NCBI GenBank assembly: GCA_034440375.1
Contig: JAWXBZ010000227.1
Span: forward strand, 1-19,746
DNA from: Candidatus Eiseniibacteriota bacterium
GTDB lineage: Bacteria > Eisenbacteria > RBG-16-71-46 > JABDJR01 > JAWXBZ01
Reading direction: 5' to 3'
DNA: 19,746 nt
Under the pieces are notes generated by a model. It was given only the letters and a program-made list of their open reading frames with translations, did no database searches and was not told where the DNA came from. The position numbers and the translations under genes are program-made. How positions within the stretch are numbered: position 1 is the stretch's first letter; each line of letters begins with the position of its first letter. Of the stretch, positions 4,912-19,008 are shown piece by piece.

Positions 4912-7506
4912 ATGACTTCAGTTGTCCGTGGCCCCCTGTTAGCGGCCGTCCTGGGCTGTCTGGCCTTCGCCCTGGCCGACCCCGGGTCGCCCGGCGCGCA
5001 CGCCGCCGAGCTCGAGTATCTGGCCGCGCCCTCCCGGCTCGATCCGCGCCTGCGGAGCTTTGTCCGCCAGTACGAGGAGGCCCTGGCCGGCCGCGTGGCA
5101 AAAGCGGAGATGAAGTCCGCGGCCGAGCCGATGTTCGGGGCCGGGGTGGTGAGCCTGGCCGCGGGCGGCCGACTCACGGTCGACTGCCTGGTCAAGATCG
5201 ATGACGAGGCCGCCCTGACAACGCTTTCCTCGATGGGCCTCGTGCCGCGCACCCGCGCCGGCAACATCGTCACGCTCGACATCCCGGTGGAGGATCTTTC
5301 CCTTCTCGAAGACATGGCGGGCATCCGCCATGTCGAGATGAGCCGTCCACTCAAACCGCTCCTCGATGTCAGCCGCGTCCTCACACAGGCCAGCGATGTG
5401 AACGGCTCGTTCGAGCCCCCCTACATGGGGTACACCGGCCGGAACGTCGTCATGGGGATCGTCGACACGGGCGTCGACCTGCAGCACGGCGATTTCAAGG
5501 ACGGGTCAGGCATGACCCGCATCGAGGCGATCTGGGACCAGACAAATCCGGCCGGGCCGGCGCCGGCGGGATTCTCCTACGGTCGCGAGTGGACCGAAGG
5601 TCAAATCAACTCAGGCCTGGCCACCCAATCGGACGGTAGCGGACACGGAACGCATGTCATCGGCATCGCCGCCGGTGACGGATCCGACACCGGCAATGGC
5701 CAACCCGCGTTTCAGTACGTCGGAGTGGCCCCGGAGTGCGACATCATCGGCGTCAAGACGAACTTCACGACCGGTGGTGTTGCCGACGGTGTGGCCTACA
5801 TCTTCAGCAAGGCCGGCGTGCGCGACGCGGTGGTAAACCTCTCCCTCGGTACGCAGGACGGGCCGCACGACGGTAGCTCACTTTTCGACCAGGGGCTGTC
5901 GGCGTTGGTCGGCACGGGCCGCAGCATCGTGGCGGCGGGTGGCAACGAAGGGAATGCCGGGGCCCACGCCCGTTTGATGGTAATGGCCACGGGTGACAGC
6001 GCGGTCTTCACCTTCCGTATCCCGAACTACACGCCCAATCCGGGCGGCACCACCCAGCAGCCCAACGACTTCGTGGTCGTCGACGGCTGGTACGAAGGGA
6101 CGGACAATTTTTCCTTCCGCGTCGAATCGCCGAACGGCAAACGAACCACGGAGGTGCTGATCGGCTCCAATAACAGCGGCGGGCGTTGCCTGCCGGCCGC
6201 CGGTGGTGTTGGTGCGGATGGGCGCAGTTATGTCGAGAACGCCCAGACCGCTCCCGACAACAACGACCGGGAAATTTACATCGAGTTGACCGAGGGCTCG
6301 ATCAGCGGAACCGCGTGCGGCGTGCCACGGGCGGGCCTCTGGAAGATCATCGCCTACAAAAAGGCGGGCTCGACGGGGCCGGGAAAGATCGATTTTTGGA
6401 TCGCCAACTATCTCCTCGGTGGCAGCAACACCTTCCCGGAGTTCGAGATCGGCAACTCCAACGACTATCTCATCGGATCACCGGCCTCGGCCAGCGGCAT
6501 CATCAGCGTCGGCGCATTCATCTCCCGGCGGCAGTGGCCCTCGGAACTGGGTCCGCGCCAGTATTCCACCCTCAACGACACCCACATCGGGCAGATCGCC
6601 AACTTTTCCAGCCCCGGCCCACTTCGCAACGATGAACTGGCCCCGATCATTTCAGCCCCCGGGATGGGCATCGCCTCCACCCGAAGCGCGGTCGCGTCGC
6701 TGGAAGCGGCATTCAACATCAATGACGGCAAGCACACCATCAACCAGGGAACGAGCCAGGCGGCGCCGCATGTGGCGGGGGTGATCGCACTCATTTTCGA
6801 GCGGTATCCACACGAAACCGCCATCAATGTTCGCAATCGCCTGATCAATTCGGCGACGCACGATACGGCAACCGGCGGCACGCCGAACAACATCTACGGC
6901 AACGGCAAATTGAACGCCGTCGGGGCAATGAACTTCGATACGCCGGTCTTTCTATCGACCTTTGAAGCCCTCCCCGCCGAGGGGGGTGTGGCCCTGCGCT
7001 GGCTCGTGGACGGAGACGACCCATTCGTCGGTTTTCATGTGAGCCGCGCCGACGCCGAGGCCGGCCCCTTTGCCCGGTTAACCGTGGCACCGCTGACCGG
7101 TGGGCCGGAATTCGCCTGGAAGGACGACGCGCTCGAGCCCGGCCGTGAGTTCTGGTATCTCCTCGAGGCCATCGAGTCCAATGGCACCTTGACCACGTTC
7201 GGGCCGCTGGCCGTCAAGGCGGGTGCGCCCCGGCTCACGCTCCGGCAGAACGGCCCCAACCCCTTCGCCTCAGGCACGACAATCGAATTCACGTTGCCGG
7301 CGCCGACGCCGGTCCACCTCCGTGTCTTTGACCTGTCGGGAAGGCTGGTGCGGACACTGATCGACGGGCGTCTTCCCGAGGGTAGCGGCCGATCCGAGTG
7401 GGACGGCAACGACGAATCCGGCTTGCCGGCCGCCAACGGCGTCTATTTCTATCGCCTCGAAACGGCATCAGGCAGCGAAGCGCGCAAGATGATCCTCAAG
7501 CGGTGA
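4912..7506 (+). CDS. Secreted S8 (subtilisin-like) serine peptidase, Csp-like architecture, with an Ig/Fn3-like domain and a C-terminal FlgD-Ig/T9SS-type-A-like tail
   Basis: Signal peptide (…AHA-AE) and prodomain. Catalytic triad GIVDTG / HGTHVIG / GTSQAAPHVAG, oxyanion AAGGNEG. Long beta-rich insertion before IGSPA. Then a TPVFLSTFEA…V.L.W…GF.V.R domain and the tail QNGPNPF…I.F.L…VFDLSGRLVRTL…WDG…G…GVYFYRL…KMILKR. SD AAGGAG at about 4900. Confidence 0.92.
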   Translation: MTSVVRGPLLAAVLGCLAFALADPGSPGAHAAELEYLAAPSRLDPRLRSFVRQYEEALAGRVAKAEMKSAAEPMFGAGVVSLAAGGRLTVDCLVKIDDEAALTTLSSMGLVPRTRAGNIVTLDIPVEDLSLLEDMAGIRHVEMSRPLKPLLDVSRVLTQASDVNGSFEPPYMGYTGRNVVMGIVDTGVDLQHGDFKDGSGMTRIEAIWDQTNPAGPAPAGFSYGREWTEGQINSGLATQSDGSGHGTHVIGIAAGDGSDTGNGQPAFQYVGVAPECDIIGVKTNFTTGGVADGVAYIFSKAGVRDAVVNLSLGTQDGPHDGSSLFDQGLSALVGTGRSIVAAGGNEGNAGAHARLMVMATGDSAVFTFRIPNYTPNPGGTTQQPNDFVVVDGWYEGTDNFSFRVESPNGKRTTEVLIGSNNSGGRCLPAAGGVGADGRSYVENAQTAPDNNDREIYIELTEGSISGTACGVPRAGLWKIIAYKKAGSTGPGKIDFWIANYLLGGSNTFPEFEIGNSNDYLIGSPASASGIISVGAFISRRQWPSELGPRQYSTLNDTHIGQIANFSSPGPLRNDELAPIISAPGMGIASTRSAVASLEAAFNINDGKHTINQGTSQAAPHVAGVIALIFERYPHETAINVRNRLINSATHDTATGGTPNNIYGNGKLNAVGAMNFDTPVFLSTFEALPAEGGVALRWLVDGDDPFVGFHVSRADAEAGPFARLTVAPLTGGPEFAWKDDALEPGREFWYLLEAIESNGTLTTFGPLAVKAGAPRLTLRQNGPNPFASGTTIEFTLPAPTPVHLRVFDLSGRLVRTLIDGRLPEGSGRSEWDGNDESGLPAANGVYFYRLETASGSEARKMILKR

Positions 7507-7507
7507 G

Positions 7508-9013
7508 ATGACCCACCTCCCGGAATTGAGCCCGGCAACCTGGCTCTTCATGGCGCTGTACCTTGCGGTCGGCGCCGGTCTCTTCGTTTATGGCGTCCAC
7601 GCGTATCTCATGTCGTGGCTCTATCGGAAGCATGAGGGGCGTGCCACCAGCGGCAAGGAAGGCTTCGAAGGCGCGGCCCATCCCATCGTCACGGTGCAAC
7701 TGCCGATCTTCAACGAGTTTTACGTCGTGGAGAGGCTGGTCGAGGCGGTCGCGGCGTTCGACTGGCCGCGCGACCGCCTCGAAATTCAGATCCTGGACGA
7801 CTCGACCGACGACACGGTCGAGCGGGTGGCGACCCTGGTGGCACGGCGGCGGGAACAGGGCTTCCAGATCGAGCAGGTCCGCCGCGATTGTCGCACCGGG
7901 TACAAGGGTGGGGCGCTGCGCGAAGGGCTGGCGCTGGCCGGGGGCGAGTACGTAGCTGTTTTTGACGCTGACTTTGTGCCACCGCCCGATTTTCTGACAG
8001 CCACGATACCGCACTTCGCTGACGCCCAGGTGGGGATGGTGCAGGCGCGGTGGGGCCACATGAACGAGGAGTACTCGCTTCTGACCCGCGCCCAGGCCGT
8101 GGCACTGGACGGACACTTCCTCATCGAGCAGACGGCGCGAAATCGGAGCGGCGCCTTCATCAATTTCAACGGCACGGCGGGCATCTGGCGGCGGGCAACG
8201 ATCGAGGACGCCGGCAACTGGCAGGACGACACGCTGACGGAGGACCTCGATCTGTCCTACCGGGCCCAGTTGAAGGGATGGCGGTTCGTTTTCCTTCCCG
8301 GCCTGGTCTGCCAGGCCGAACTGCCCGTGGACATCGACGGTTTCAAGGGGCAGCAGTTCCGCTGGGCCAAGGGATCAGTGCAGACGGCGATGAAGCTGCT
8401 GCCGGAGCTCCTGCGATCGCGGGTCGGCATCTTCGTCAAAGTGCAGGCGCTGATCCATCTCACGAACCACGCCGTTTATCCGCTCCTGCTCCTGCTGGCC
8501 ATTTTCTCGCTGCCGGCGTTGATCCTCCACGCAAACGAACCACTCGTCCGCCGTTTTTTCGTGGTGGCCACTTTTTTTGTCATTGCCAGTCTGGGGCACC
8601 CGCTTCTCTACCTGGATGCGCAGCGACGGCTCAAGCGGGATTGGCCGCGCCAGCTTGCGCTCATGCCGATCCTCATTGCGCTGGGAATGGGAATCGCCGT
8701 GAATAACGTCCGCGCCGTCATCGAGGCGCTGGCCGGCGTCCCCTCAGGGTTCAACCGGACGCCGAAGTACGACCTCCGTCAGTCCAGCGACAAATGGCGC
8801 GGCAAACGCTATCGCGTGCCGGTGAATGCCTGGCCGCTGCTCGAGCTGGCCCTCGGCGCCTGGACTGGTGCCGCGCTGGTGTACAGCGTCTGGCACGGCC
8901 AGTGGCTGGCCGCCCCGTTCCTGGCTCTGTACACCGCAGGCCTGGTCTCGGTGGGCGGCGCCTCCCTGGCCCGGGCCTTCGACTCGCCCGGCGGCATTGC
9001 CCGTACGGCATGA
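7508..9013 (+). CDS. Membrane GT2 glycosyltransferase, cellulose-synthase-like (Csl) type
   Basis: VTVQLPIFNE, QILDDSTD, GYKGGAL, FDADF, FNGTAGIWRR, TEDLDLS, QQFRWAKG give the D,D,D,QxxRW signature. One N-terminal and several C-terminal TM helices; no PilZ domain. Confidence 0.92.
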   Translation: MTHLPELSPATWLFMALYLAVGAGLFVYGVHAYLMSWLYRKHEGRATSGKEGFEGAAHPIVTVQLPIFNEFYVVERLVEAVAAFDWPRDRLEIQILDDSTDDTVERVATLVARRREQGFQIEQVRRDCRTGYKGGALREGLALAGGEYVAVFDADFVPPPDFLTATIPHFADAQVGMVQARWGHMNEEYSLLTRAQAVALDGHFLIEQTARNRSGAFINFNGTAGIWRRATIEDAGNWQDDTLTEDLDLSYRAQLKGWRFVFLPGLVCQAELPVDIDGFKGQQFRWAKGSVQTAMKLLPELLRSRVGIFVKVQALIHLTNHAVYPLLLLLAIFSLPALILHANEPLVRRFFVVATFFVIASLGHPLLYLDAQRRLKRDWPRQLALMPILIALGMGIAVNNVRAVIEALAGVPSGFNRTPKYDLRQSSDKWRGKRYRVPVNAWPLLELALGAWTGAALVYSVWHGQWLAAPFLALYTAGLVSVGGASLARAFDSPGGIARTA

Positions 9014-10011
9014 CGGGCGCCATCCGGGCGTTTCTCGACGCGAGCCTTCCCCCCCTGTTTCGCGAGAGGCCGGCAGAGATCGATCCCTGGTTTTATGACT
9101 ACTTCGGTGAACTGGTCGAACCGGCGGCGCGCCAGCGATATGCGCGGGCGGTAGCGGCCGATCTGGAACTGGCCGGGGTCGACCCGTCCGGCCGCGTCGT
9201 GCTCGATGCGGGAAGCGGTTTCGGCATCACGCTCCTCTGCCTCGCGGCCCTCGCGCCCAGGCTGGCCGCCGGCCTCGAAGCCTTCCGGCCGATGGCTCTG
9301 ACCTCGGTCCGGCTTTGCGCACGTCTCGGGCCCGGCCTCCCCGCGGCCGTGGTGCGAGGCTCGGTGGCCGCCTTTCCCTTCGCACGGGGATCGGTCGATT
9401 TCATTTACTGCAACGAAGCGCTCAGCCATTTTCTCGACCGGAACGCTTTTTACGATGAGTGCGCCCGCGTTCTCAAGCCGGGTGGAAAATTGATGATCTG
9501 CGATGGCAACAACGCCCTGAATCCAGGCACGGTGGCCCGTGTCCGGCAGATATGGAAGAGGTTCGAGGAGGGTCCGCCCATCGACGACCTGTTCGGTCAC
9601 CGCATCGAGCGACCGTATCGTGACCGGCGGCGTGAAATGATCGACGTGGCCCTGCCTGAGTTGGGGGAGACCGTGCTCGACCGCCTCGCCTGGGGCACGT
9701 TTGGCCGCCACGGCGCCGACATCCTGATCGAGGCCAGGCGCATTCTGGCCTCGGGGCAATTGCCCGAGGCGCCGCCCGTCGTCGATCGTTCCCCGGTTGA
9801 TCCGGTCAAGGGAGATCACATCGAAAGCCTGGTGGATGCGGGCGAACTGCGGGCGCAACTCGAACCCCGTGGCTTTCTCGTGCAGGTTCATGCCCACTTC
9901 GGCGGCGCCCGCAGCCCAATTCTGGCTGCGGTCAATCAGTTGCTCCGGGCCGCCTCCTTCGTCACTCTTCCCTGGGCCCGCTCGGTCAAGATTGTCGCCA
10001 CGCGGGTTTGA
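9010..10011 (+). CDS. Class I SAM-dependent methyltransferase
   Basis: Motif I VVLDAGSGFG, FPF…SVDFIYCNEALSH, RVLKPGGKLMICD. Start moved from 8794 to ATG 9010, which forms an ATGA overlap with the GT2 stop. Confidence 0.85.
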   Translation: MTGAIRAFLDASLPPLFRERPAEIDPWFYDYFGELVEPAARQRYARAVAADLELAGVDPSGRVVLDAGSGFGITLLCLAALAPRLAAGLEAFRPMALTSVRLCARLGPGLPAAVVRGSVAAFPFARGSVDFIYCNEALSHFLDRNAFYDECARVLKPGGKLMICDGNNALNPGTVARVRQIWKRFEEGPPIDDLFGHRIERPYRDRRREMIDVALPELGETVLDRLAWGTFGRHGADILIEARRILASGQLPEAPPVVDRSPVDPVKGDHIESLVDAGELRAQLEPRGFLVQVHAHFGGARSPILAAVNQLLRAASFVTLPWARSVKIVATRV

Positions 10012-10022
10012 TGGACGGTTGA

Positions 10023-10925
10023 TCAGCCCCGTCCACCCCGCCACATCCCATAGAACTGCGCGAACCGGTACACCGCCGCCCGCGGCCATGCCAGAAGCCG
10101 CCCCTCGCGACCGAGGCGCCCGAGATCGGCCAGCGTCTGCCTGGGCCAGGCCTTGAACAGCAGCGACACACTCTCGGTCAACCCTTCCGACTGTCGACGC
10201 ACCCGCGATTCCGCCTCGCACCGGGCGGCGGTCGCGCGCACCGAGTAATCGTGAGAGTGGCGAACCGCGGCGCCCGGGACATAGGCGATGCGTCGGCCGC
10301 GGGCCAATTGGTGCGCCGCCCAGACGCGGTCCTCCGCGATGAGCAGTGACTCGTCGAACGGCTCCTCCTGCCAGGCGGACCGTCGCGCGACCGAGTTGAC
10401 ATTGCTGAAGAGAACACCGCCTCTGTTGGACTCAGGAAGCGCCTCAGCGGGATAGTCCACCTCGATCTGCCAGCGCTCGGGCGGAAAAACATCCGGCCGG
10501 GCGATCTGGCGACCGAACGCGGCCGCCACCGCCGATTCGTCGGAGCCCGCCGTAGTTTCCATCGGAGCGATCAGCCGGCCGAGCCACCCGGCATCGAGTG
10601 GCAGCGCGTCCTGGCTGAGCATCACGACCAGGTCGCCGCGGGCCTCGCGGAAACCCAGATTGGTACTGCGCGCGTGGGTGAACTCGGAGCCGGGTATCGT
10701 GACGATGCGGCATCGTTCCGCTTGGCCGAACGGCGAGTCCGGTGCCACGAGGCGGAGGCCAACCGCCAGTATCCGGTCAACGGTGCCATCGCTCGAGCCC
10801 GAGTCGACAATCAGCAACTCATCCGGCCTTCGGCGCTGGTCGGCAAGGCACGGCAGAAGATCCGCCAGCCAGGGTCCGGCATTAAGTGTCCTGATCACGA
10901 GCGTCACGCGCGCGGAATCGTTCAC
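10023..10925 (-). CDS. Soluble GT2 glycosyltransferase (rhamnosyltransferase-like)
   Basis: VTLVIRTLNAG, IVDSGSSDGT, F.HA.+.N.G, VMLSQDALP, FGRQ, FSNVNS, FDE…AED..WA, V.HSHDY. Real start is probably GTG at 10925 (GTGA overlap with the upstream stop), not 11705. Confidence 0.87.
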   Translation of the reverse strand: MNDSARVTLVIRTLNAGPWLADLLPCLADQRRRPDELLIVDSGSSDGTVDRILAVGLRLVAPDSPFGQAERCRIVTIPGSEFTHARSTNLGFREARGDLVVMLSQDALPLDAGWLGRLIAPMETTAGSDESAVAAAFGRQIARPDVFPPERWQIEVDYPAEALPESNRGGVLFSNVNSVARRSAWQEEPFDESLLIAEDRVWAAHQLARGRRIAYVPGAAVRHSHDYSVRATAARCEAESRVRRQSEGLTESVSLLFKAWPRQTLADLGRLGREGRLLAWPRAAVYRFAQFYGMWRGGRG

Positions 10926-12304
10926 GACCCGGAACCCGGATGATGGCCGCGATTCAGGATCCACCGACGCGACTCCCATCCCAGAAGGAGCAGAAACGGA
11001 ATCGCCAGGAACATCTTGGATCCGGCCGGATCGCCCGACTGCCGTCCCTCGATCCAGGCGGGCACCGCCTGATATGAGAGGAGCGAGGCGAGCGTGACGT
11101 AGAACCAACTGACCGAAAAATTGATGGCCACGAACGGAAGCAGCCACGCCAGGTACCAGGGGTGGATCGTCGGCGACAGGAGAAGCGCGGAACCGGTAAC
11201 GGTGGCAATGGCTACGGCCGGGCGGGCCCTGATCAGCGCCACCGCGGTGGCGATGGCCCCGACCAGCAGGGCCGCATAAAGCTTGGCCTCGGTCAGCCGG
11301 CCGGGCTGATCGACAAGCGTCCCGGGACGAACCAGCAATCCGAAGAAGAAATCGTTGGCACGCCAACGGGCCGCGTAGGTGCCAAGACTTCCGAATGCGT
11401 TCGTATCGGGGGCCATGTACGGAAGGTAACCGACGAGCAGAGTTAGGACGAACCCCAGCGCAATCCAGCCCCAGGCTCGACGCGGCCCCAGCAGAAACGG
11501 CAGGGCGAGCAGAGCCAGGAATTTGACCATCGTGGCGGCAGCAACCATGGCGCCAACAGCGATCCACCGCCCTCTGCCATGCCCTTTCGAATTGGCCAGG
11601 ATGAACGCGAGCACGAGCAGTGCGATCCCAGCCACATCGACATGGCCTGAGCCGCTCCATTCGATGGCTGCGAGTGGATGCCACCACCAGACGAGAAATC
11701 GCCACCGGTCAGCCGGAAGCGCCGCCACCCGGACCGCGAGAATAAGCCCTACCGCGAGGTCGAACAGGAGGAGCAGCATCTTGAGACCGGTAACGCCCGG
11801 CAAAACATGGGCCGCGGCCTCGAATAGTCGTTGCGCCGTGGGCGGGTAGATGGTCGGAAGCGTTGGATTGTTGAGGCGCGACCAATCAAGGTCACGAAGT
11901 TGCGAGAGTGCCGTGTCCGGCGGCGCGTGCCGGTAGGGGTTCACCCCGCTCCTGGCCACCCGGCCATCCCACACGTAGCGGTAGATGTCGTCCGACATTT
12001 GCGGCGGTGCCAGGAGCAGCGGAAGGCGCATCAAGAGGCCCACGACCAGAAGCAGCGGCCATGAGAGGACAATCGAGTCGATCGACCCGGCACGGCCGGG
12101 GGCCATGTCGCGGCCGAGCCGCCGCGCGATGAACAGGGCGCCCACGAAACAGGCCACCATGGCCACCAGCAACAGAAGGAGGTTGGCACTCTGGCCCTGC
12201 AGCGTGGGGAAGCACGCCAGTCGGGCCGAGGCGGCCGCCAGCAGGAAGCCGAGAACAGGAATGGCCGTAGCCATCAATCGTGCGGGCAGTGGCGCTGGTC
12301 TCAT
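10922..12304 (-). CDS. Polytopic GT-C-fold glycosyltransferase (GT87/DUF2029/MptB-like)
   Basis: SDDIYRYVWDG…G.NPY..AP…TIYPP loop, WWHPL..IE..GSGH.D, conserved K in MVKFL, LLSPTIHPWY..W; about 10 TM segments. Start ATG 12304 (alternative 12274). The longer track ORF to 13183 is the antisense of pyk. Confidence 0.82.
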   Translation of the reverse strand: MRPAPLPARLMATAIPVLGFLLAAASARLACFPTLQGQSANLLLLLVAMVACFVGALFIARRLGRDMAPGRAGSIDSIVLSWPLLLVVGLLMRLPLLLAPPQMSDDIYRYVWDGRVARSGVNPYRHAPPDTALSQLRDLDWSRLNNPTLPTIYPPTAQRLFEAAAHVLPGVTGLKMLLLLFDLAVGLILAVRVAALPADRWRFLVWWWHPLAAIEWSGSGHVDVAGIALLVLAFILANSKGHGRGRWIAVGAMVAAATMVKFLALLALPFLLGPRRAWGWIALGFVLTLLVGYLPYMAPDTNAFGSLGTYAARWRANDFFFGLLVRPGTLVDQPGRLTEAKLYAALLVGAIATAVALIRARPAVAIATVTGSALLLSPTIHPWYLAWLLPFVAINFSVSWFYVTLASLLSYQAVPAWIEGRQSGDPAGSKMFLAIPFLLLLGWESRRWILNRGHHPGSGS

Positions 12305-12328
12305 CCGTCCAGTAGCATACCCGGCTTC
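12305..12328. promoter_or_regulatory. Candidate bidirectional promoter (overlapping -10 elements TAGCAT on + and TATGCT on -)
   Basis: The 24-bp gap between divergent ATGs contains TAGCATA (12313-12319), and neither gene has an SD. Confidence 0.5.
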
Positions 12329-13750
12329 ATGAGACGAGCGAAGATAGTCTGCACTCTGGGGCCCGCCACGCGCGAGCCGAAAATGCTGCGCCAGCTGATC
12401 GAAGCCGGCATGAATGTCTGCCGGCTTAACTTTTCCCACGGAACACACGAGGAACACCGCCGGACGGTGGAGATGATCCACCGCGAGGCCAAACGGGCGG
12501 GTGCCACGGTCGCCATCCTGCAAGACCTGCAGGGCCCAAAGATCCGGACCGGGTTGATGCCTGCCGGCGACGTGCTGCTGAAACCGGGGGCGGCCTTCGT
12601 GTTGACAACCCGCAAGGTGACCGGCAGCGCCACGATCGTATCCACGACGTTTGCCGACCTCCCCCACGAGGTGTCCCGGGGTGACCAACTCCTCCTGGCT
12701 GACGGCCTGATCCAGCTGGAAGTGGCCCGCGTGGACGGGACCGATGTGCACTGCAAGGTCGTCGACGGCGGGCTCCTCGGCTCGAACAAGGGGATCAACA
12801 TTCCGGGCCGCAAGTTGTCGGTGTCGGCGCTGACTCCCAAGGATCGGGAGGACCTGAAGCTTGGCGTTCAGCTCGGCGTCGACTGGGTGGCCTTGTCGTT
12901 CGTGCGGTCGGCGGACGATGTCCGGCTCCTGCGCGCGGCGTTGAAGCGGCTGCGCGCCTCCGACAAGCCGGTCGTGGCCAAGCTGGAGAAGCCACAGGCC
13001 ATGGCCAACCTGATCGAGATCCTGGACGAGGCCGACGCCGTCATGGTGGCCCGCGGCGATCTGGCCGTGGAAACCAGCCCGGAACAGGTACCGGTTTTGC
13101 AAAAGAGGATCATCCGTGAGGCGAGGCGACGGGGCGTGCCGGTGATCACGGCCACGCAGATGCTCGAATCGATGATCGACCATCCCCGGCCGACGCGCGC
13201 CGAAGCCAGCGACGTGGCCAACGCCATTTACGACGGCACGGATGCCGTGATGCTGTCAGCCGAAACCGCCGTCGGCCGGTATCCGGTTGAAACGGTCCAG
13301 CTCATGGGGCGAATCATCGAAAACGTGGAGGCGGAACTGTCGGCCAATCCACGTCGCGAATCCGAATCAGCCTCCTGGTGGCGCAAGTCGGTGGCCGACG
13401 CCATCTGCGAGGCCGCCGCCCATGCCGCCGAGGGACTCGGGGCACCGGTCGTCGCCGTATTCACCGAGACCGGCAACACAGCGCGGCGCGTCGCGCAGTA
13501 TCGACCAAGCGCTCGCATCATCGCGTTCAGTTCGTCGGACATGATCCGACGGCGCATGGCGCTCCTCTGGGGCGTCGAATCGCGGCCGTCCCCGGCGGTG
13601 TCAACCACCGACCGGATGGTTGATTGGGTGGCCGGTGCCCTGCGTCGGGAGGGGATCATTCACCCGGGTGACCGGATCGTCGTTACTGCCGGTACGCCGG
13701 TCGGTCAGGCAGGTTCAACCAACTTCCTGAAGATTCACCAGGCGCGCTGA
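12329..13750 (+). CDS. pyk: Pyruvate kinase
   Basis: KIVCTLGPAT, RLNFSHG, DLQGPKIR, AKLEK, MVARGDL, ATQMLESM…PTRAEASDVANA..DGTDAVMLSAETA.G.YP. Confidence 0.98.
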   Translation: MRRAKIVCTLGPATREPKMLRQLIEAGMNVCRLNFSHGTHEEHRRTVEMIHREAKRAGATVAILQDLQGPKIRTGLMPAGDVLLKPGAAFVLTTRKVTGSATIVSTTFADLPHEVSRGDQLLLADGLIQLEVARVDGTDVHCKVVDGGLLGSNKGINIPGRKLSVSALTPKDREDLKLGVQLGVDWVALSFVRSADDVRLLRAALKRLRASDKPVVAKLEKPQAMANLIEILDEADAVMVARGDLAVETSPEQVPVLQKRIIREARRRGVPVITATQMLESMIDHPRPTRAEASDVANAIYDGTDAVMLSAETAVGRYPVETVQLMGRIIENVEAELSANPRRESESASWWRKSVADAICEAAAHAAEGLGAPVVAVFTETGNTARRVAQYRPSARIIAFSSSDMIRRRMALLWGVESRPSPAVSTTDRMVDWVAGALRREGIIHPGDRIVVTAGTPVGQAGSTNFLKIHQAR

Positions 13751-13806
13751 CTCACGGAGACCATCCACGAAGATGGAGGTAACGGCGGCGCACGGCGCGT
13801 CGACGC

Positions 13807-13843
13807 AAAAAAAAAGCCCATCCGGCGGGAGCCGGATGGGCTT
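13807..13843 (-). terminator. Rho-independent terminator for the minus-strand yjbH-like/small-protein unit (may also act on pyk)
   Basis: Perfect 13-bp inverted repeat AAGCCCATCCGGC-ggga-GCCGGATGGGCTT (13814-13843), with an A9 run at 13807-13815 that is a U-tract on the minus strand. Confidence 0.88.
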
Positions 13844-13868
13844 CAGTCTTCTTGTTGAATCCAGGGGA

Positions 13869-14231
13869 CTACTGACCGCCGCCGCCGCGCCCCTGTTCAT
13901 GGCAGGGCGCCTTGCAGCTCTGGGCTGCGGCCGCGATTTCTTCCTGCCGTGCCTCGTGACGGGCTCTTTCCTGCTCAAGGCAGGCCGGATTCCCGTGGCA
14001 GGCCTCGATGTTGGCGCGGTGGAGGTCCTGTTCATCATCCCGGGCATCCTTGGCGATATCATTGCAGGCACGCACGCACGCCGAGACCCCGCTGCCGTTA
14101 TCCAGGGTTCCGCTGCCTGGTCCGACCGCCCGGTCCGCCACCTGGCTGCATTGCGAACCGGAAAGGGTCAGGATCGTGATAGCCAGGGCGGCCGTGATAG
14201 GCCAGTACCAGTTCTTGTTGCGGAGCGTCAT
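13869..14231 (-). CDS. Small exported cysteine-rich protein, possible lipoprotein; unknown function
   Basis: Strong SD (AGGGGAGG) before the ATG. Basic N-terminus and hydrophobic stretch ending LSGSQ-C28, then a Gly/Ser linker and six further Cys in symmetric spacing. Followed directly by a terminator. Confidence 0.8.
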   Translation of the reverse strand: MTLRNKNWYWPITAALAITILTLSGSQCSQVADRAVGPGSGTLDNGSGVSACVRACNDIAKDARDDEQDLHRANIEACHGNPACLEQERARHEARQEEIAAAAQSCKAPCHEQGRGGGGQ

Positions 14232-14276
14232 GCGTTGATCCTCCCCTAGTTGTAATGCGACTCAGCCGCAATATCC

Positions 14277-16226
14277 TTAAAACCGAACTGACCATGAGAC
14301 ACCACCGGACAGTTCCTCGAAATTCAGTAACGCCAACTGCGCTGACAGGCGAGATAGCATGATGACGCGTACGCCGCCATTCCATTTCTCACTATCATAC
14401 TCAGCCATGGTGATGGCCCACGGAGTTAATTGTAGCTGTACTCCGCCAAAGACACCATCAAGAAGATAACGGGCAGCCGTCAAGCTGCGCAATCCATATC
14501 CAAGGGTCACCTCGGCCCCGGGACGGTCGAAACCGGGTCCAATCGATTGACTTGCAACAAGATACAGAGAATGAAAGCGTCGGGTACCCCGAATATCTTC
14601 AACGCCCGCCCCCAGGGTGGTACGTCCTCCTGGCCACGGACTCTGGATCCGGAGGCTCCCCATTCGGTCGACCGCATCAACCGGAACGTCTTCGATCAGG
14701 TACTCCCCCGGCAGGACGGTGGCGCGCAGCGACGCTTCGACCCAGGGCAGGAATCCAACGGTGAGATACCCATATTCGTTGCGAAGTGAGCCTCTTCCCT
14801 CGTAGGCGAATTCACGCGGTATGTGGCTGTATCCCACATGGATGGTTCCTTCCAGGGCGACATGGGGCGTAGGTGTATTGATCAGCCCGGTGGTGCCCGC
14901 AAGGGAGGCACGCGGTTCAATGATCGGCCACCCCGCCCGGGATCTGTCCCGGTAGCGGGAGGTGACCGAGCGGCCGCGGATCGCATCCAGGTTGTTCTCG
15001 ATATAGGTCGGTGTCAGGCCGTGGCGGAAGCGGTCAATTGTGTCGAAGGCCCGAACGCGTTGACCGATTGGCGCCACGTCTTCGCGGTACTCGAACGGGA
15101 AAGATGGAACCGTCGTCGCCCGAATGGGCGCCGGACGCGACAGGTGCCGCGCCGGAAGCGGAACGCTGAATCGGAATCCGCCGACCTCTCCCGCATCGGT
15201 CGAGATGCCGAAGAACCCCAGATCCACCTCTCCAAAACGACGGACCGCATCGATCCGAATTCCCTCGTCCCCGGAAAGGAAGTGGCCGGCCGCGAAGGAG
15301 ACTTCGACATCGCGGCCCGGTAGTCGCCCGATCAGTGTCCCCACCCCGGACCAGGCAGCGATATCCGAATAGGAGACCGTTCCAGCGTCGAGAAACTTGA
15401 AGAATCCCGACCAATCGCCCCCGACGCGGGCCTCCAGCAGGCCCCGGCGATCGAGGTAGCGGCCTGCCTCGGCCACGAACCCGTACCGGTTTTCCGGGAA
15501 CGTCCCGCCGCTGGCGGCCGCGTGAATGCCACCGGGAAGGCGGTTGTTCCACGAGAGGGTGTTGCGCCCGGGCTCGATGGGGGAATTGAAGTCATCCAGG
15601 TCATCCTGCAACTCGATGCGGGCCTGCAGGGTCAGGAGGAGGCTGCCTGCCGGGCTCATGGTCAGTTCCGGTGCCACCCAAAATCCGGTCTGGAACGGAT
15701 CGTCCGCAATGCCCAGCTGGAGGTCGACAAGCGGCCGGAGTGCCAGGTCGATCCGCCACTGAGAGGCGTTCAGGGGTTTGAGTCCCGATTCCTCGGAATC
15801 ACGATCCAGAGTGGTGCCGATTGGGGGCCACGATCCGGGCTCCGAGATGTGCAAGATCTCCCGGAAGGCGGACAGATCCATGGCGCCGGAAAGGAACTGC
15901 CGCCAGGCCTCGACCGGAGCCTTCAGGGTTTGCGTCGCCACGCCGCGTGTCAGAGGCGTGAGAGCCAGGGCGCCACCTGGGCTCAGGTACGGAATTGCTC
16001 GCCCGGCCACGCGACCCAGGGCTCTCAGCTCCCAACGCTCAATCCGGTTTTCGAAACGGATCTCGACGTCCCCGCCGTTCAGAAACGAAACGCTGATGTT
16101 TTCAAAGCCAGCGCCTGCCAGCGAATCGACAAATTCCTGATGTTTCACATCCTGGGCATGCCCGCTGGGGTGGGCAAGGAGATGGAGCAGAACAACGGCA
16201 ATCATTAAGCCCGGCTTACGGGACAT
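14277..16226 (-). CDS. YjbH/GfcD-like outer-membrane beta-barrel protein with permuted domain order
   Basis: Likely start ATG 16226 (SD GGAG; signal peptide …SGHA-QD). Segments: L..AGFENISV…I.FENR; G.F…RYG…E / G.F+.GD.G.R.D..RRF; LAGTTGLINTPT…G+LPWVE.SLR.T…DR…+R…AEYDS…N.G. C-terminal beta-signal-like GGVSWSVRF. Family call is from remembered motifs, not from a search. Confidence 0.75.
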   Translation of the reverse strand: MSRKPGLMIAVVLLHLLAHPSGHAQDVKHQEFVDSLAGAGFENISVSFLNGGDVEIRFENRIERWELRALGRVAGRAIPYLSPGGALALTPLTRGVATQTLKAPVEAWRQFLSGAMDLSAFREILHISEPGSWPPIGTTLDRDSEESGLKPLNASQWRIDLALRPLVDLQLGIADDPFQTGFWVAPELTMSPAGSLLLTLQARIELQDDLDDFNSPIEPGRNTLSWNNRLPGGIHAAASGGTFPENRYGFVAEAGRYLDRRGLLEARVGGDWSGFFKFLDAGTVSYSDIAAWSGVGTLIGRLPGRDVEVSFAAGHFLSGDEGIRIDAVRRFGEVDLGFFGISTDAGEVGGFRFSVPLPARHLSRPAPIRATTVPSFPFEYREDVAPIGQRVRAFDTIDRFRHGLTPTYIENNLDAIRGRSVTSRYRDRSRAGWPIIEPRASLAGTTGLINTPTPHVALEGTIHVGYSHIPREFAYEGRGSLRNEYGYLTVGFLPWVEASLRATVLPGEYLIEDVPVDAVDRMGSLRIQSPWPGGRTTLGAGVEDIRGTRRFHSLYLVASQSIGPGFDRPGAEVTLGYGLRSLTAARYLLDGVFGGVQLQLTPWAITMAEYDSEKWNGGVRVIMLSRLSAQLALLNFEELSGGVSWSVRF

Positions 16227-16680: not shown

Positions 16681-19008
16681 TTGCGACACGCGCTGCTGAG
16701 CCGTCGACCACACAGGCTGGCCCCGGACCGGGCACCGCTGAACCTCATCCTGCTGGTCATCCTTGCGAGTCTCGGCTTCCAGTCCCCCGTTGCCCGGGCA
16801 TCGACCCTTCGTTCGTCTCTCGGCGATCCCCGGATCGCCACCCACCTTCGGTCAGCACTCGAATGGGCGGCCCGGTCGGAATCGGACCCTCAGGATGAGC
16901 TTCGCCCAACGGCGGCCCCGCAATCCGAGTTGATTCTCAGCGGACCCGCCTACGATTGGGCCGGGCCGGACAGTCGCGTCCTCCTGGTCATCGAAGGAAA
17001 TCCTCATCCAGGCTTGCTGGCGGCCGCGGGCGCAGAGGTCAATACGATCGCGGGGGGTGTCACGACCGCACTCGCACCGCTGTCGCGCATACCAGACATC
17101 CTTGGCGTGGCCGGAATCCGTTCCATCGAGATGGAGCAACCGCTGGTGCTCTGTACCGATGTGAGTGCGCTGGCGATCAACGCCGACGACCTGTGGGGCG
17201 GCCCTCCCCCGGCCTATTCGGCCAGCGGTGAAACGGGTGAAAACGTAGTTGTCGGCATCGTCGACACCGGCCTCGATGTCTACCACGAGGATTTCCGCAC
17301 AGCTGCCGGATCACGAGTCAAGGCGTGCTGGGACCAGACGATTTCAACCGGGACGCGCCCCGCCGGCTTCACATACGGCAGTGAGTACTCGACGTCCCAG
17401 ATCAACGCGAGCCAGTATCCGGGCACGGACGACCTGGGACACGGCACACATATCGCCGGCGTAGCCGCGGGGAATGGCCGGGCCACCGGCGGTGCTGTCC
17501 CCCAGTTCACATTTCCCGGCATCGCCCCGGAAGCCGATCTGGTGTTTGTCAAACTGACACCGAGTCCGAACGGCAGCTACACGGACGCCCGGGTGATCGA
17601 CGGCGTCAATTTCGTCTTCCAGAAGGCCGCCGCGCTGGGCAAACCCGCAGTTGTCCTCCTGGCGGTCAGCAAAATGACCGGACCACATGACGGCTCCGAC
17701 GCCATGGACGTTGCCCTCACCGCCCTCACCGGCCCCGGGAAGCTCCTGGTGGTCGCCGGCGGCAACGAATATGGCCGCTCCCGACATGCCGAATGGACCG
17801 CCTCGAGCAGCCAGCCGAGCGGGAACATGACCGTTAACGTCCCGGCTTATGTTGCCTCGGGCAACGCCGGAGATCACTTTCAGGTGGAAGCGTGGTACGA
17901 CGCCACGGAGAACGTCACCGTGACGATGACCACCCCGGCCGGGATGGTGATCGGACCGGTATTGCGCGGTACTCAAATTACAGTCCAGAGCCCATCCGGC
18001 GTGGTGACGATCAAGAATGGTGTCGCCACCAGCAGCAATGGATCCTTCAAGATCGAATACAGCCTCTCGAGGGGAAGCCTCACTTTTCCGGCGCTCGCCT
18101 CGGGCACCTGGACGGTCGGTCTCACGGCCCTCAGTAATCCGTACTTCCGGGTGGATGCCTGGCTGACGAGCTGGCTCCTTGGCTCCGCCGCCCCCACGTT
18201 CGTAACGGGAAAGACGGAGTCACGATTGATCGGCTCGCCGGCGACCGCCCTTGGTGCCGTATCCGCGTCGTCCTACACGACGAAGCGTACCTGGACCGAC
18301 GTCAACGGATCCTCCCGTTCGTATTACTACGCCGTCATGAACCAGATCGCCAACTACGCCTCCAGCGGCCCCAGCCGTGACGGAGAAACTCTGCCGCACA
18401 TCGCGGCTCCGGGCTATGGTGTGGCGGGGTCGATGTCGTCGCAGGCGCTGTCGAGTATTTCGAGCACCTATCGACTCCCCGATGGTGTGCATTACATCAA
18501 CAGCGGAACGAGTGTGGCCGCGGCCCACGTCGCCGGCGGTGTGGCCCTCCTGCTGCAGTCGGTCTCGAACCTGACGCGGGACCAGGTTGTCAACCAGTTG
18601 ACGGCCTCGGCCACCACCGACGCCTTCACCGGTGCCGTGCCGAACTTGCGGTGGGGCGCCGGCAAGCTGTATCTGCAACCGCTCGCTGCGGCCGCGGTTG
18701 GCGACCAGGTTTTTACCTCGCGCATCGGATTCAATGTCACGCCGAACCCGAGCCGCGGCCCGGCCATCTTCCGATTCAACGTACCCCTGGAGATGGCCGA
18801 GCGGCAGTCGGTGGACGCCCGCCTCCAGATTTTCGACATCGCGGGTCGGGAAATCAGCCATTTGATCCGTGCGGTGCCATCGGGCCCGGCCGAGTTGGCC
18901 TGGGATGGCTCGACAGGTTCGGGAGCCGTTGCAGCGGCCGGAATTTACTGGGGCCGTTTGACCCTGGGCGGCAAGAGCGCGTTGACACGTATCGTCCGCA
19001 CCCGATAA
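16681..19008 (+). CDS. Secreted S8 serine peptidase (paralog of 4912..7506) with a C-terminal FlgD-Ig/T9SS-like tail
   Basis: TTG start with GAGG SD; signal peptide (…ARA-ST). Triad GIVDTG / HGTHIAG / SGTSVAAAHVAG, VAGGNE. Tail PNPS…F.F…IFDIAGR…WDG…G…AGIYW.RL…RIVRTR. Exact start is uncertain. Confidence 0.9.
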   Translation: MRHALLSRRPHRLAPDRAPLNLILLVILASLGFQSPVARASTLRSSLGDPRIATHLRSALEWAARSESDPQDELRPTAAPQSELILSGPAYDWAGPDSRVLLVIEGNPHPGLLAAAGAEVNTIAGGVTTALAPLSRIPDILGVAGIRSIEMEQPLVLCTDVSALAINADDLWGGPPPAYSASGETGENVVVGIVDTGLDVYHEDFRTAAGSRVKACWDQTISTGTRPAGFTYGSEYSTSQINASQYPGTDDLGHGTHIAGVAAGNGRATGGAVPQFTFPGIAPEADLVFVKLTPSPNGSYTDARVIDGVNFVFQKAAALGKPAVVLLAVSKMTGPHDGSDAMDVALTALTGPGKLLVVAGGNEYGRSRHAEWTASSSQPSGNMTVNVPAYVASGNAGDHFQVEAWYDATENVTVTMTTPAGMVIGPVLRGTQITVQSPSGVVTIKNGVATSSNGSFKIEYSLSRGSLTFPALASGTWTVGLTALSNPYFRVDAWLTSWLLGSAAPTFVTGKTESRLIGSPATALGAVSASSYTTKRTWTDVNGSSRSYYYAVMNQIANYASSGPSRDGETLPHIAAPGYGVAGSMSSQALSSISSTYRLPDGVHYINSGTSVAAAHVAGGVALLLQSVSNLTRDQVVNQLTASATTDAFTGAVPNLRWGAGKLYLQPLAAAAVGDQVFTSRIGFNVTPNPSRGPAIFRFNVPLEMAERQSVDARLQIFDIAGREISHLIRAVPSGPAELAWDGSTGSGAVAAAGIYWGRLTLGGKSALTRIVRTR

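Follow-up and report, generated by a model that had tools for sequence, protein, structure and literature searches.

The window analyzed here is a stretch of 19,746 nt from a Candidatus Eiseniibacteriota genome (GenBank assembly GCA_034440375.1, contig JAWXBZ010000227.1), and the gene under study, at 13869-14231 on the minus strand, encodes a 120-residue protein with seven cysteines, which a first-pass annotation made from the sequence alone had read as a small exported helical hairpin. This hairpin protein belongs to a real, conserved family whose most conserved feature is its Cys ladder, and its gene is the obligate, fixed downstream gene partner of a gene for a permuted GfcD/YjbH-like double beta-barrel protein of the outer membrane (OM).

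The barrel gene ends 45 nt upstream of the hairpin gene on the same strand. The hairpin gene is real, as judged from the Shine-Dalgarno (SD)-like sequence ahead of it, the intrinsic terminator at its end, which it has in common with the convergent pyruvate kinase gene (pyk), and its guanine-cytosine (GC) content by codon position (0.67/0.54/0.77), which resembles that of the neighboring pyk (0.68/0.48/0.81). An overlapping plus-strand open reading frame (ORF) at 13773-14249 had no comparable support from an SD sequence, a terminator or codon-position GC. The features of the locus are as follows, with AF2 standing for AlphaFold2.

14277-16226, minus strand: permuted GfcD/YjbH-like double beta-barrel OM protein, 649 residues (P0167; PF06082, E 1.6e-16)
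14240-14246, minus strand: SD-like GGGGAGG, 8 nt ahead of the ATG, read from the sequence
13869-14231, minus strand: gene for the 120-residue, seven-Cys hairpin protein (ORF list, homologs, profile search, codon-position GC), stop codon at 13869-13871
14151-14231, minus strand: signal peptide, residues 1-27, with a basic n-region, a hydrophobic stretch and a lipobox-like LSGSQ before C28
14148-14150, minus strand: C28, invariant in both alignments, probable lipid-attachment cysteine
14118-14147, minus strand: post-Cys motif, residues 29-38, family pattern C-x-x-V-x-D-x-x-T-G-[V/P] (column counts)
13998-14093, minus strand: helix 1, residues 47-78, with C52, C56, E67, H71, N74 and C78 (AF2, column counts)
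13983-13997, minus strand: turn HGNPA, residues 79-83, between C78 and C84, a variable site with inserts of up to 58 residues in relatives
13893-13982, minus strand: helix 2, residues 84-113, with C84, E88, H92, I99, C106 and C110 (AF2, column counts)
13872-13901, minus strand: C-terminal tail at the protein end, residues 111-120, [H/Y]-x-[Q/E]-G-x-G-x-G-G-x (tail counts)
13813-13844, both directions: two-way intrinsic terminator, a 14-bp stem with a T run after it on the minus strand

A conserved family with a six-cysteine ladder

Translation of the gene placed cysteines at positions 28, 52, 56, 78, 84, 106 and 110 and bore out the first-pass annotation in its details, namely the spacing C-x3-C-x21-C-x5-C-x21-C-x3-C, the mirror pairs 52+110, 56+106 and 78+84 with a sum of 162 each, the HGNPA turn, the E67/H71 and E88/H92 pairs and the ending CHEQGRGGGGQ. 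The absence of Pro and Gly that it had noted for the arms held for both 21-residue arms of the window protein and did not extend to the family, in which 65 of 161 proteins have Pro or Gly in an arm.

A word-indexed search yielded 16 close homologs at 55-99% identity, one of which is annotated, merely as a hypothetical protein of Candidatus Eisenbacteria. All seven cysteines are invariant in these 16 sequences and likewise in a 128-row alignment reaching down to 23% identity. A profile search covering 1.84 billion cluster representatives returned 256 of them at E<=1e-3, of which 119 reached E<=1e-10; almost all have a length of about 120 residues. When the pattern C-x3-C-x21-C-x(3-70)-C-x21-C-x3-C was applied to 166 family proteins, 161 matched, with both arms at 21 residues without exception and a loop between the arms of 4-58 residues (five residues in 126 proteins); the five misses were two N-terminal fragments and three proteins with altered spacing or an extra Cys. 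The ladder is not a chance arrangement, because it is conserved across the family.

The first-pass annotation had made its reading depend on whether homologs keep the Cys spacing, the Glu and His residues and the end of the protein. The spacing is kept, as just described, and so is the tail. The Glu and His residues fared less uniformly over the 161 matching proteins: E67 is kept in 156, E88 is Glu in 146 and Ala in 12, and the H92 column holds His in 144, Tyr in eight and Asn in five, whereas the H71 column is often aromatic (His 123, Phe 22, Tyr 11), and the complete E67/H71/E88/H92 quartet is present in 106. The tail is 9-11 residues long in 154 of the 161. Among 111 tails of exactly ten residues, Gly occupies position 4 in 110, position 6 in 101 and position 9 in 105, position 1 is His in 83 and Tyr in 26, and position 3 is Gln in 84 and Glu in 25. 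These two positions co-vary, His going with Gln (83/84) and Tyr with Glu (26/25).

With an alignment of 16 rows, AF2 predicted helices at residues 47-78 and 82-113, at a block predicted local distance difference test (pLDDT) of 85-93, and disorder in residues 1-46 and 114-120. This helix-turn-helix model supports the earlier proposal of an exported protein that forms a helical hairpin, and it places C52-x3-C56 and C106-x3-C110 on separate helices. According to the heptad phase, read from the Cys positions in the sequence, the cysteines would share an inter-helix face with E67, L70/H71 and N74 of helix 1 and with E88, H92 and I99 of helix 2, in layers that would set N74 opposite E88, L70/H71 opposite H92/R91 and E67 opposite R95. 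Several of the inserts found at the turn in relatives are Asp/His-rich. A group of relatives comprising P0046 (227 residues), P0063 (250 residues), P0083, P0146 and P0151 has double hairpin units per chain or inserts at the tip, the latter being Asp/His-rich, low-complexity stretches of 30-60 residues.

The first-pass annotation had recognized no named family, and none emerged here by sequence or by fold. Scans of the hairpin protein against Pfam and NCBIfam gave zero families at E<=1, and a search of the Protein Data Bank (PDB) with the family profile had as its best match cyclin D3 at a meaningless E of 0.1 and contained no Tim chain. A Foldseek search of the hairpin model against the PDB gave no matches at E<=0.001, with generic helical hairpins alone beyond that threshold, and a protein atlas held only unnamed Candidatus Eiseniibacteriota clusters. 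A literature search on bacterial twin-CX3C proteins and on the Eisenbacteria envelope brought up no published description of such a family. The named hosts are almost all Candidatus Eisenbacteria; a short contig of 4.4 kb labeled Verrucomicrobiia (L055) carries a relative that is 71% identical over 62 residues, and this placement could reflect a binning error or gene transfer. A 47-residue match at 36% identity on a Lachnospiraceae contig (L002) was taken as chance.

Linkage to a permuted GfcD/YjbH-like barrel

The barrel protein matched PF06082 with 60.7 bits (cut-off 24), and its gene is the only one of this kind in the source genome. GfcD/YjbH double barrels have been described as the largest multi-barrel family of the OM (PMC8346858); their N-terminal barrel of 12 strands is followed by a middle domain and this in turn by the C-terminal barrel (PMC8346858; PMC11494523). 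The window protein departs from this published order by a circular permutation, in that its residues 49-245 correspond to profile positions 263-452 and its residues 474-614 to positions 6-134, so that the N-type barrel follows the middle domain and the C-type barrel. AF2 modeled it at a pLDDT of 79 and a predicted template modeling score (pTM) of 0.77, with an alpha/beta domain at 40-128 and strand blocks at 159-381 and 461-648. Foldseek matches of this model at E<=0.001 had template modeling (TM) scores of 0.12-0.20, a generic likeness to OM barrels on which no specific kinship, for example with FapF, was accepted; LptDE(M) was among these matches at TM 0.12-0.19, again a generic barrel likeness only. 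The barrel profile found nothing in the PDB at E<=1. In six loci (L001, L035, L038, L040, L052 and L053) the barrel is split into two adjacent genes, the second half in L001 carrying its own signal peptide, and a single taxonomic family of the phylum contains fused (G000) as well as split (G055) barrels.

The distribution of the two genes was surveyed in 206 species genomes of the phylum. The hairpin family is present in 45 of them, with up to six matches per genome, often in tandem, and the barrel profile matched 48 genomes, including all 45 holders of the hairpin family; 158 genomes have neither gene. As for the three genomes with a barrel alone, the barrel is cut by a contig end downstream in G108 and G126, and the match in G021 is weak. 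In 25 of 29 phylum loci, the window's own locus excluded, the next gene upstream on the same strand is YjbH-like; the remaining four are L008, where the contig ends, L012, L023 and L026. In loci with longer flanks the barrel was upstream in 19 of 20, the exception being L039, in a genome with five matches. The same gene order was found in a distant metagenome-assembled genome (L001), and barrel-hairpin pairs span six families of the phylum, in which related genomes are not independent observations. A single barrel gene is accompanied by one to six tandem hairpin copies with a mutual identity of 33-69%, and the net charge of the hairpins ranges from -22 to +12.

A complex of the mature barrel and the mature hairpin was also predicted. 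Three runs gave interface scores (ipSAE) of 0.51, 0.44 and 0.01, with a median of 0.44, while the best of three controls was 0.00; the runs agreed in at least 38% of contacts, and the pLDDT of the partner was at least 63. Of 80 solved complexes, 58 reached the mark applied to this score, as did 2 of 110 mismatched pairs; in the range up to 0.60 it was reached by only 7 of the 80 solved complexes and by both of the passing mismatches. The prediction thus weakly backs binding between barrel and hairpin.

Among the loci compared, no other conserved neighbor of the pair was found beyond close relatives. The S8 peptidase, pyruvate kinase and glycosyltransferase genes near it were considered as partners and rejected, because they recur only in close relatives. 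The source genome contains no homologs of GfcB/YjbF (PF11102) or of GfcC, and the hairpin protein itself has no PF11102 match.

The wider surroundings of the pair in the window were as follows. Two large S8 subtilases with a FlgD-Ig-like C-terminal domain are encoded at 4912-7506 and 16681-19008, both on the plus strand. The second and the barrel operon are divergent, and L001 keeps this arrangement; in L038 a subtilase also stands beside the barrel operon but on the same strand, and the arrangement is not kept across the wider phylum. A GT2 glycosyltransferase ORF (7508-9013, plus strand) and a methyltransferase ORF (8794-10011, plus strand) overlap by about 220 nt as listed, and the methyltransferase therefore probably has a later start. 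A further GT2 gene lies at 10023-11705 on the minus strand, and a 753-residue ORF at 10922-13183 is probably over-extended, since its counterpart in L001 has 450 residues. A TlpA/ResA-like thioredoxin-fold protein and a CcdA-type DsbD_TM membrane protein are encoded side by side at 1055-1636 and 1692-2432 on the minus strand; the pair looks like a reducing thiol pathway of the envelope.

Export signal and probable lipid anchor

C28 is invariant in the 128 alignment rows and stands directly after the hydrophobic stretch ...AITILTLSGSQ, a placement typical of lipoproteins. The residue before this cysteine (-1) is Gln in 124 of 154 family signals and Gly, Ala or Ser in 12. A crude survey of 284 candidate lipobox sites in the source genome, which encodes LspA, counted Gly at -1 in 114, Ala in 53, Ser in 17 and Gln in four. 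The strongest argument for lipidation comes from the tandem paralogs of L051, of which the first has LSQC and the next three have the canonical lipoboxes LAGC, FAGC and LAAC at the equivalent place, so that the -1/Cys position corresponds to that of a lipobox. Judged from these sequences, C28 is most likely the site at which a lipid is attached, which would make the protein a lipoprotein, although one whose Gln at -1 is unusual.

The residues after C28 are also conserved, with Val at +3 in 117 of 154 proteins, Asp at +5 in 130 and Gly at +9 in 93, and AF2 confidence over them is low; this post-Cys motif is a candidate sorting or docking signal. Export through the Tat pathway was considered and rejected, as an Arg pair is present in 65 of 154 signals, a stricter Tat-like motif in just 7 of 154, and the window protein has no Arg pair. 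Elsewhere in the source genome (G000), a minus-strand ORF of 286 residues on contig C150, one of the four Gln sites in the survey, has a signal ending in ...LALTGSQC followed by a dense Cys cluster (CDECWTDDCDCY); its product may be another Gln-Cys lipoprotein.

Proposed interaction with the barrel and probable chemistry of the cysteine clamp

On balance, we favor an interpretation in which the Cys-clamped hairpin lipoprotein works physically with the GfcD-like barrel, and among its versions we lean towards the hairpin as cargo rather than as subunit. Four parts of this proposal are conjectural: that C28 is lipidated, that the cysteines form disulfides, that the hairpin binds the barrel and which way it is transported. 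The protein would consist of a signal peptide ending in the lipidated Cys, a flexible Gly/Ser linker starting with C-x-x-V-x-D-x-x-T-G, a 65-residue antiparallel helical hairpin and a short Gly-rich C-terminal tail. Six cysteines on the inner helix faces would lock the register through C52-C110, C56-C106 and C78-C84, the lock being most likely three disulfides and less likely thiolate-metal bridges. The hairpin polypeptide would pass through the 13-strand-type barrel while the acyl chains exit laterally into the outer leaflet; the motifs conserved at the two termini, which lie at the hairpin base, would act as recognition signals, and the hairpin would finish on the cell surface.

The leaning towards cargo was based on the properties of the family and on published precedents. 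There are one to six diverged copies per barrel, their net charge varies widely, the tip tolerates long acidic inserts, double hairpins exist naturally, and conserved motifs stand at the hairpin base, at either end of the chain. GfcD's C-terminal barrel has been modeled with 13 strands and a lateral gate and proposed to export a lipid-anchored polysaccharide (PMC11494523), and the published idea of a lateral gate for lipid-anchored passengers fits the present case. In the Slam system, moreover, the gene for an OM barrel often adjoins one or more lipoprotein genes, whose products are the cargo of the translocon (PMC5449769). The likeness ends there, as the Slam barrel is of the DUF560 type and not YjbH-like, its cargo is beta-rich and TbpB-like, and transport is here a conjecture. 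LptD, to which GfcD has been compared (PMC11494523), likewise combines a lateral-gate barrel for a lipid-anchored molecule with the small lipoproteins LptE and LptM, neither of which is related in sequence to the hairpin.

Several results weigh against this interpretation. A clamped two-helix hairpin would be bulky for a barrel of 12 or 13 strands, and the lipoprotein GfcB, with GfcC, is bound by E. coli GfcD as a partner and not as cargo (PMC8592465), which favors a subunit role. The complex score was a weak pass, with one of three runs at 0.01 and no interface returned. A Gln at -1 departs from the canonical lipobox; the window protein lacks Gly, Ala or Ser at this place, and Gln is rare among the candidate sites of the genome, so that lipidation is not certain. 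As for the disulfides, DsbA (PF01323, PF13462), DsbB and VKOR were not found in the source genome, which is 93.7% complete; DsbB was found in 0 of the 206 phylum genomes, and VKOR in 35 of 206 and in 12 of the 45 holders of the hairpin family, the holders without VKOR including the near-complete, few-contig assemblies G048, G049 and G097. The Cys counts of exported proteins (one Cys in 133, two in 85, three in 54, four in 41) showed no even bias in a crude, uncalibrated tally. Together, the missing enzymes and the absent bias leave enzymatic disulfide formation unsupported.

Nevertheless, it is probable that the six cysteines form three disulfides. Three cross-links would call for just such a mirror pairing and for arms fixed at 21 residues, and the mature protein without its lipid Cys has an even number of cysteines, six. 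The three disulfide rungs suggested in the first-pass annotation therefore fit the geometry, without being secured in view of the missing enzymes. Spontaneous oxidation, oxidation outside the cell or an unrecognized oxidase would have to account for such disulfides; otherwise, the cysteines would hold metal. We regard this latter possibility as appreciably less likely. The base four cysteines (the twin CX3C) and the tip two would then bind Zn, Cu(I) or an Fe-S center, possibly across two hairpins, with the Glu/His strip as a possible further site, in a metal-binding or metal-buffering protein of the envelope; such binding bears on how the clamp is held together and would suit a cargo as well as a subunit role. 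Reduced small Tim proteins bind zinc through their twin CX3C motif. Binding of metal would agree with the scarcity of the oxidative enzymes and with the lack of an even Cys bias in the crude tally, as well as with the Asp/His-rich loop inserts of some relatives and the frequent retention of E67, E88 and H92, which probably lie on the same helix face as the cysteines. The strict mirror pairing and fixed arms speak for pairwise cross-links instead, the two tip cysteines by themselves cannot complete a site, and the tail co-variation of His with Gln and Tyr with Glu resembles a hydrogen-bond pair rather than a ligand. With strictly Tat-like signals so rare, export of a folded, cofactor-loaded protein is also unlikely.

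The first-pass annotation had further proposed a His2/Glu2 metal site between the helices. Such a site is geometrically possible, because these residues lie on the helix face of the cysteines, but the incomplete conservation of the quartet counts against it. The replacement of H71 by Phe or Tyr in 33 of 161 proteins, while E67 stays, would fit a role in packing or hydrogen bonding at least as well. Di-iron and ferritin-like bundles differ in having E-x-x-H motifs in a four-helix bundle, compared with E-x3-H on two helices here.

With regard to the role of the hairpin beside the barrel, a serious though less likely alternative is that the protein is an accessory subunit, a hairpin lipoprotein that would dock on, plug or help assemble the barrel from the periplasmic side, in the manner of LptE and LptM with LptD, while the real substrate is something else, such as a lipid-anchored glycan. 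The gene linkage, the co-occurrence and the weak complex support apply to this possibility equally. It has a model in GfcB/YjbF, an OM lipoprotein that is encoded with and binds a GfcD/YjbH-type barrel, GfcD in E. coli binding the GfcB-GfcC pair (PMC8592465); binding is here a prediction. Since neither GfcB/YjbF nor GfcC has a homolog in the source genome, that role would be vacant, and glycosyltransferase genes are present in the window. These glycosyltransferase neighbors, however, are not conserved beyond close relatives, and up to six diverged copies per barrel with such a wide spread of charge would be unusual for a stoichiometric subunit. The arrangement also differs from GfcBCD in that the hairpin lacks GfcB homology, no GfcC is present, the partner gene lies downstream, the barrel is permuted or split and the partner occurs in up to six copies.

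The cargo interpretation could be taken further, to a GfcD/YjbH-type barrel that is here a translocon for lipid-anchored proteins and flips hairpins to the surface through its lateral gate, a notion that we hold only tentatively and consider rather unlikely in this full form. The minimal module would be a barrel with one to six hairpin lipoproteins and no conserved polysaccharide genes; the post-Cys motif and the Gly-rich tail would serve as export signals, and the Gln-Cys lipobox would mark the cargo class.

Two other possibilities were found to be much weaker. The hairpin is very unlikely to be an antimicrobial or signaling peptide of the alpha-hairpinin type that the barrel would export and that would be released without an anchor. 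A helix-loop-helix is formed in plant alpha-hairpinins and in CS-alpha/alpha peptides of scorpions by the motif XnC1X3C2XnC3X3C4Xn, where X is not Cys (PMC7191063). The outer four cysteines of the hairpin family conform to this motif; the invariant C78 and C84 in the middle stretch depart from it. The tandem diverged copies would suit a released peptide, and a vicilin-like peptide chain (7uv1_A) gave a faint profile match, but an E of 2.7 lacks significance. An anchor is indicated by the invariant Cys at the signal end and by the canonical lipoboxes of paralogs, and no immunity or processing gene was seen nearby. Those peptides are also short, released defense peptides of eukaryotes, whereas the hairpin is about twice the length of a hairpinin and probably anchored. 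Least probable is a small c-type cytochrome with haem on C106-x3-C110-H111, in which H92 would be the distal ligand: all 16 close homologs share CKAPCH, the source genome has four matches to the cytochrome c assembly family and the window holds the CcdA/TlpA-like pair, but the motif is CX3CH rather than the haem motif CXXCH, its His alternates with Tyr (26 of 111 tails), haem would leave the invariant C52 and C56 without partners and the mirror symmetry unexplained, and no cytochrome family matched in Pfam, NCBIfam or the PDB profile search.

A close structural parallel is with the small Tim proteins (Tim9/Tim10), which are likewise small helix-loop-helix proteins with mirror-paired CX3C motifs on antiparallel helices in an envelope compartment, in their case the mitochondrial intermembrane space. 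No sequence relation between the two groups was found, either by Pfam (zf-Tim10_DDP) at E<=1 or in the PDB profile search. The CX3C motifs of small Tims are separated by about 11-16 residues, compared with about 47-48 or more (21+1+loop+1+21) in the hairpin family, which in addition has a tip Cys pair, a lipoprotein-type signal, a Gly-rich tail and a barrel partner. Neither the twin-CX3C helical hairpin as a type of fold nor the placing of a lipoprotein gene next to a barrel gene is new in kind. What is new is an unnamed family without detectable homology, the third Cys pair, the Gln-Cys lipobox and the strict link to a permuted barrel.

Taken together, these data identify the hairpin family as a bacterial counterpart of the twin-CX3C helical hairpin, one that carries a non-canonical Gln-Cys lipobox. 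Six cysteines are invariant in a phylum in which DsbB was not found and VKOR has a patchy distribution, so that it may be asked by what means these bacteria make disulfides in their envelope, if they make them at all. With a barrel strictly coupled to one small, easily expressed family, the pair is a stripped-down two-component module and offers a simple test system for binding to, and transport by, barrels of this type.

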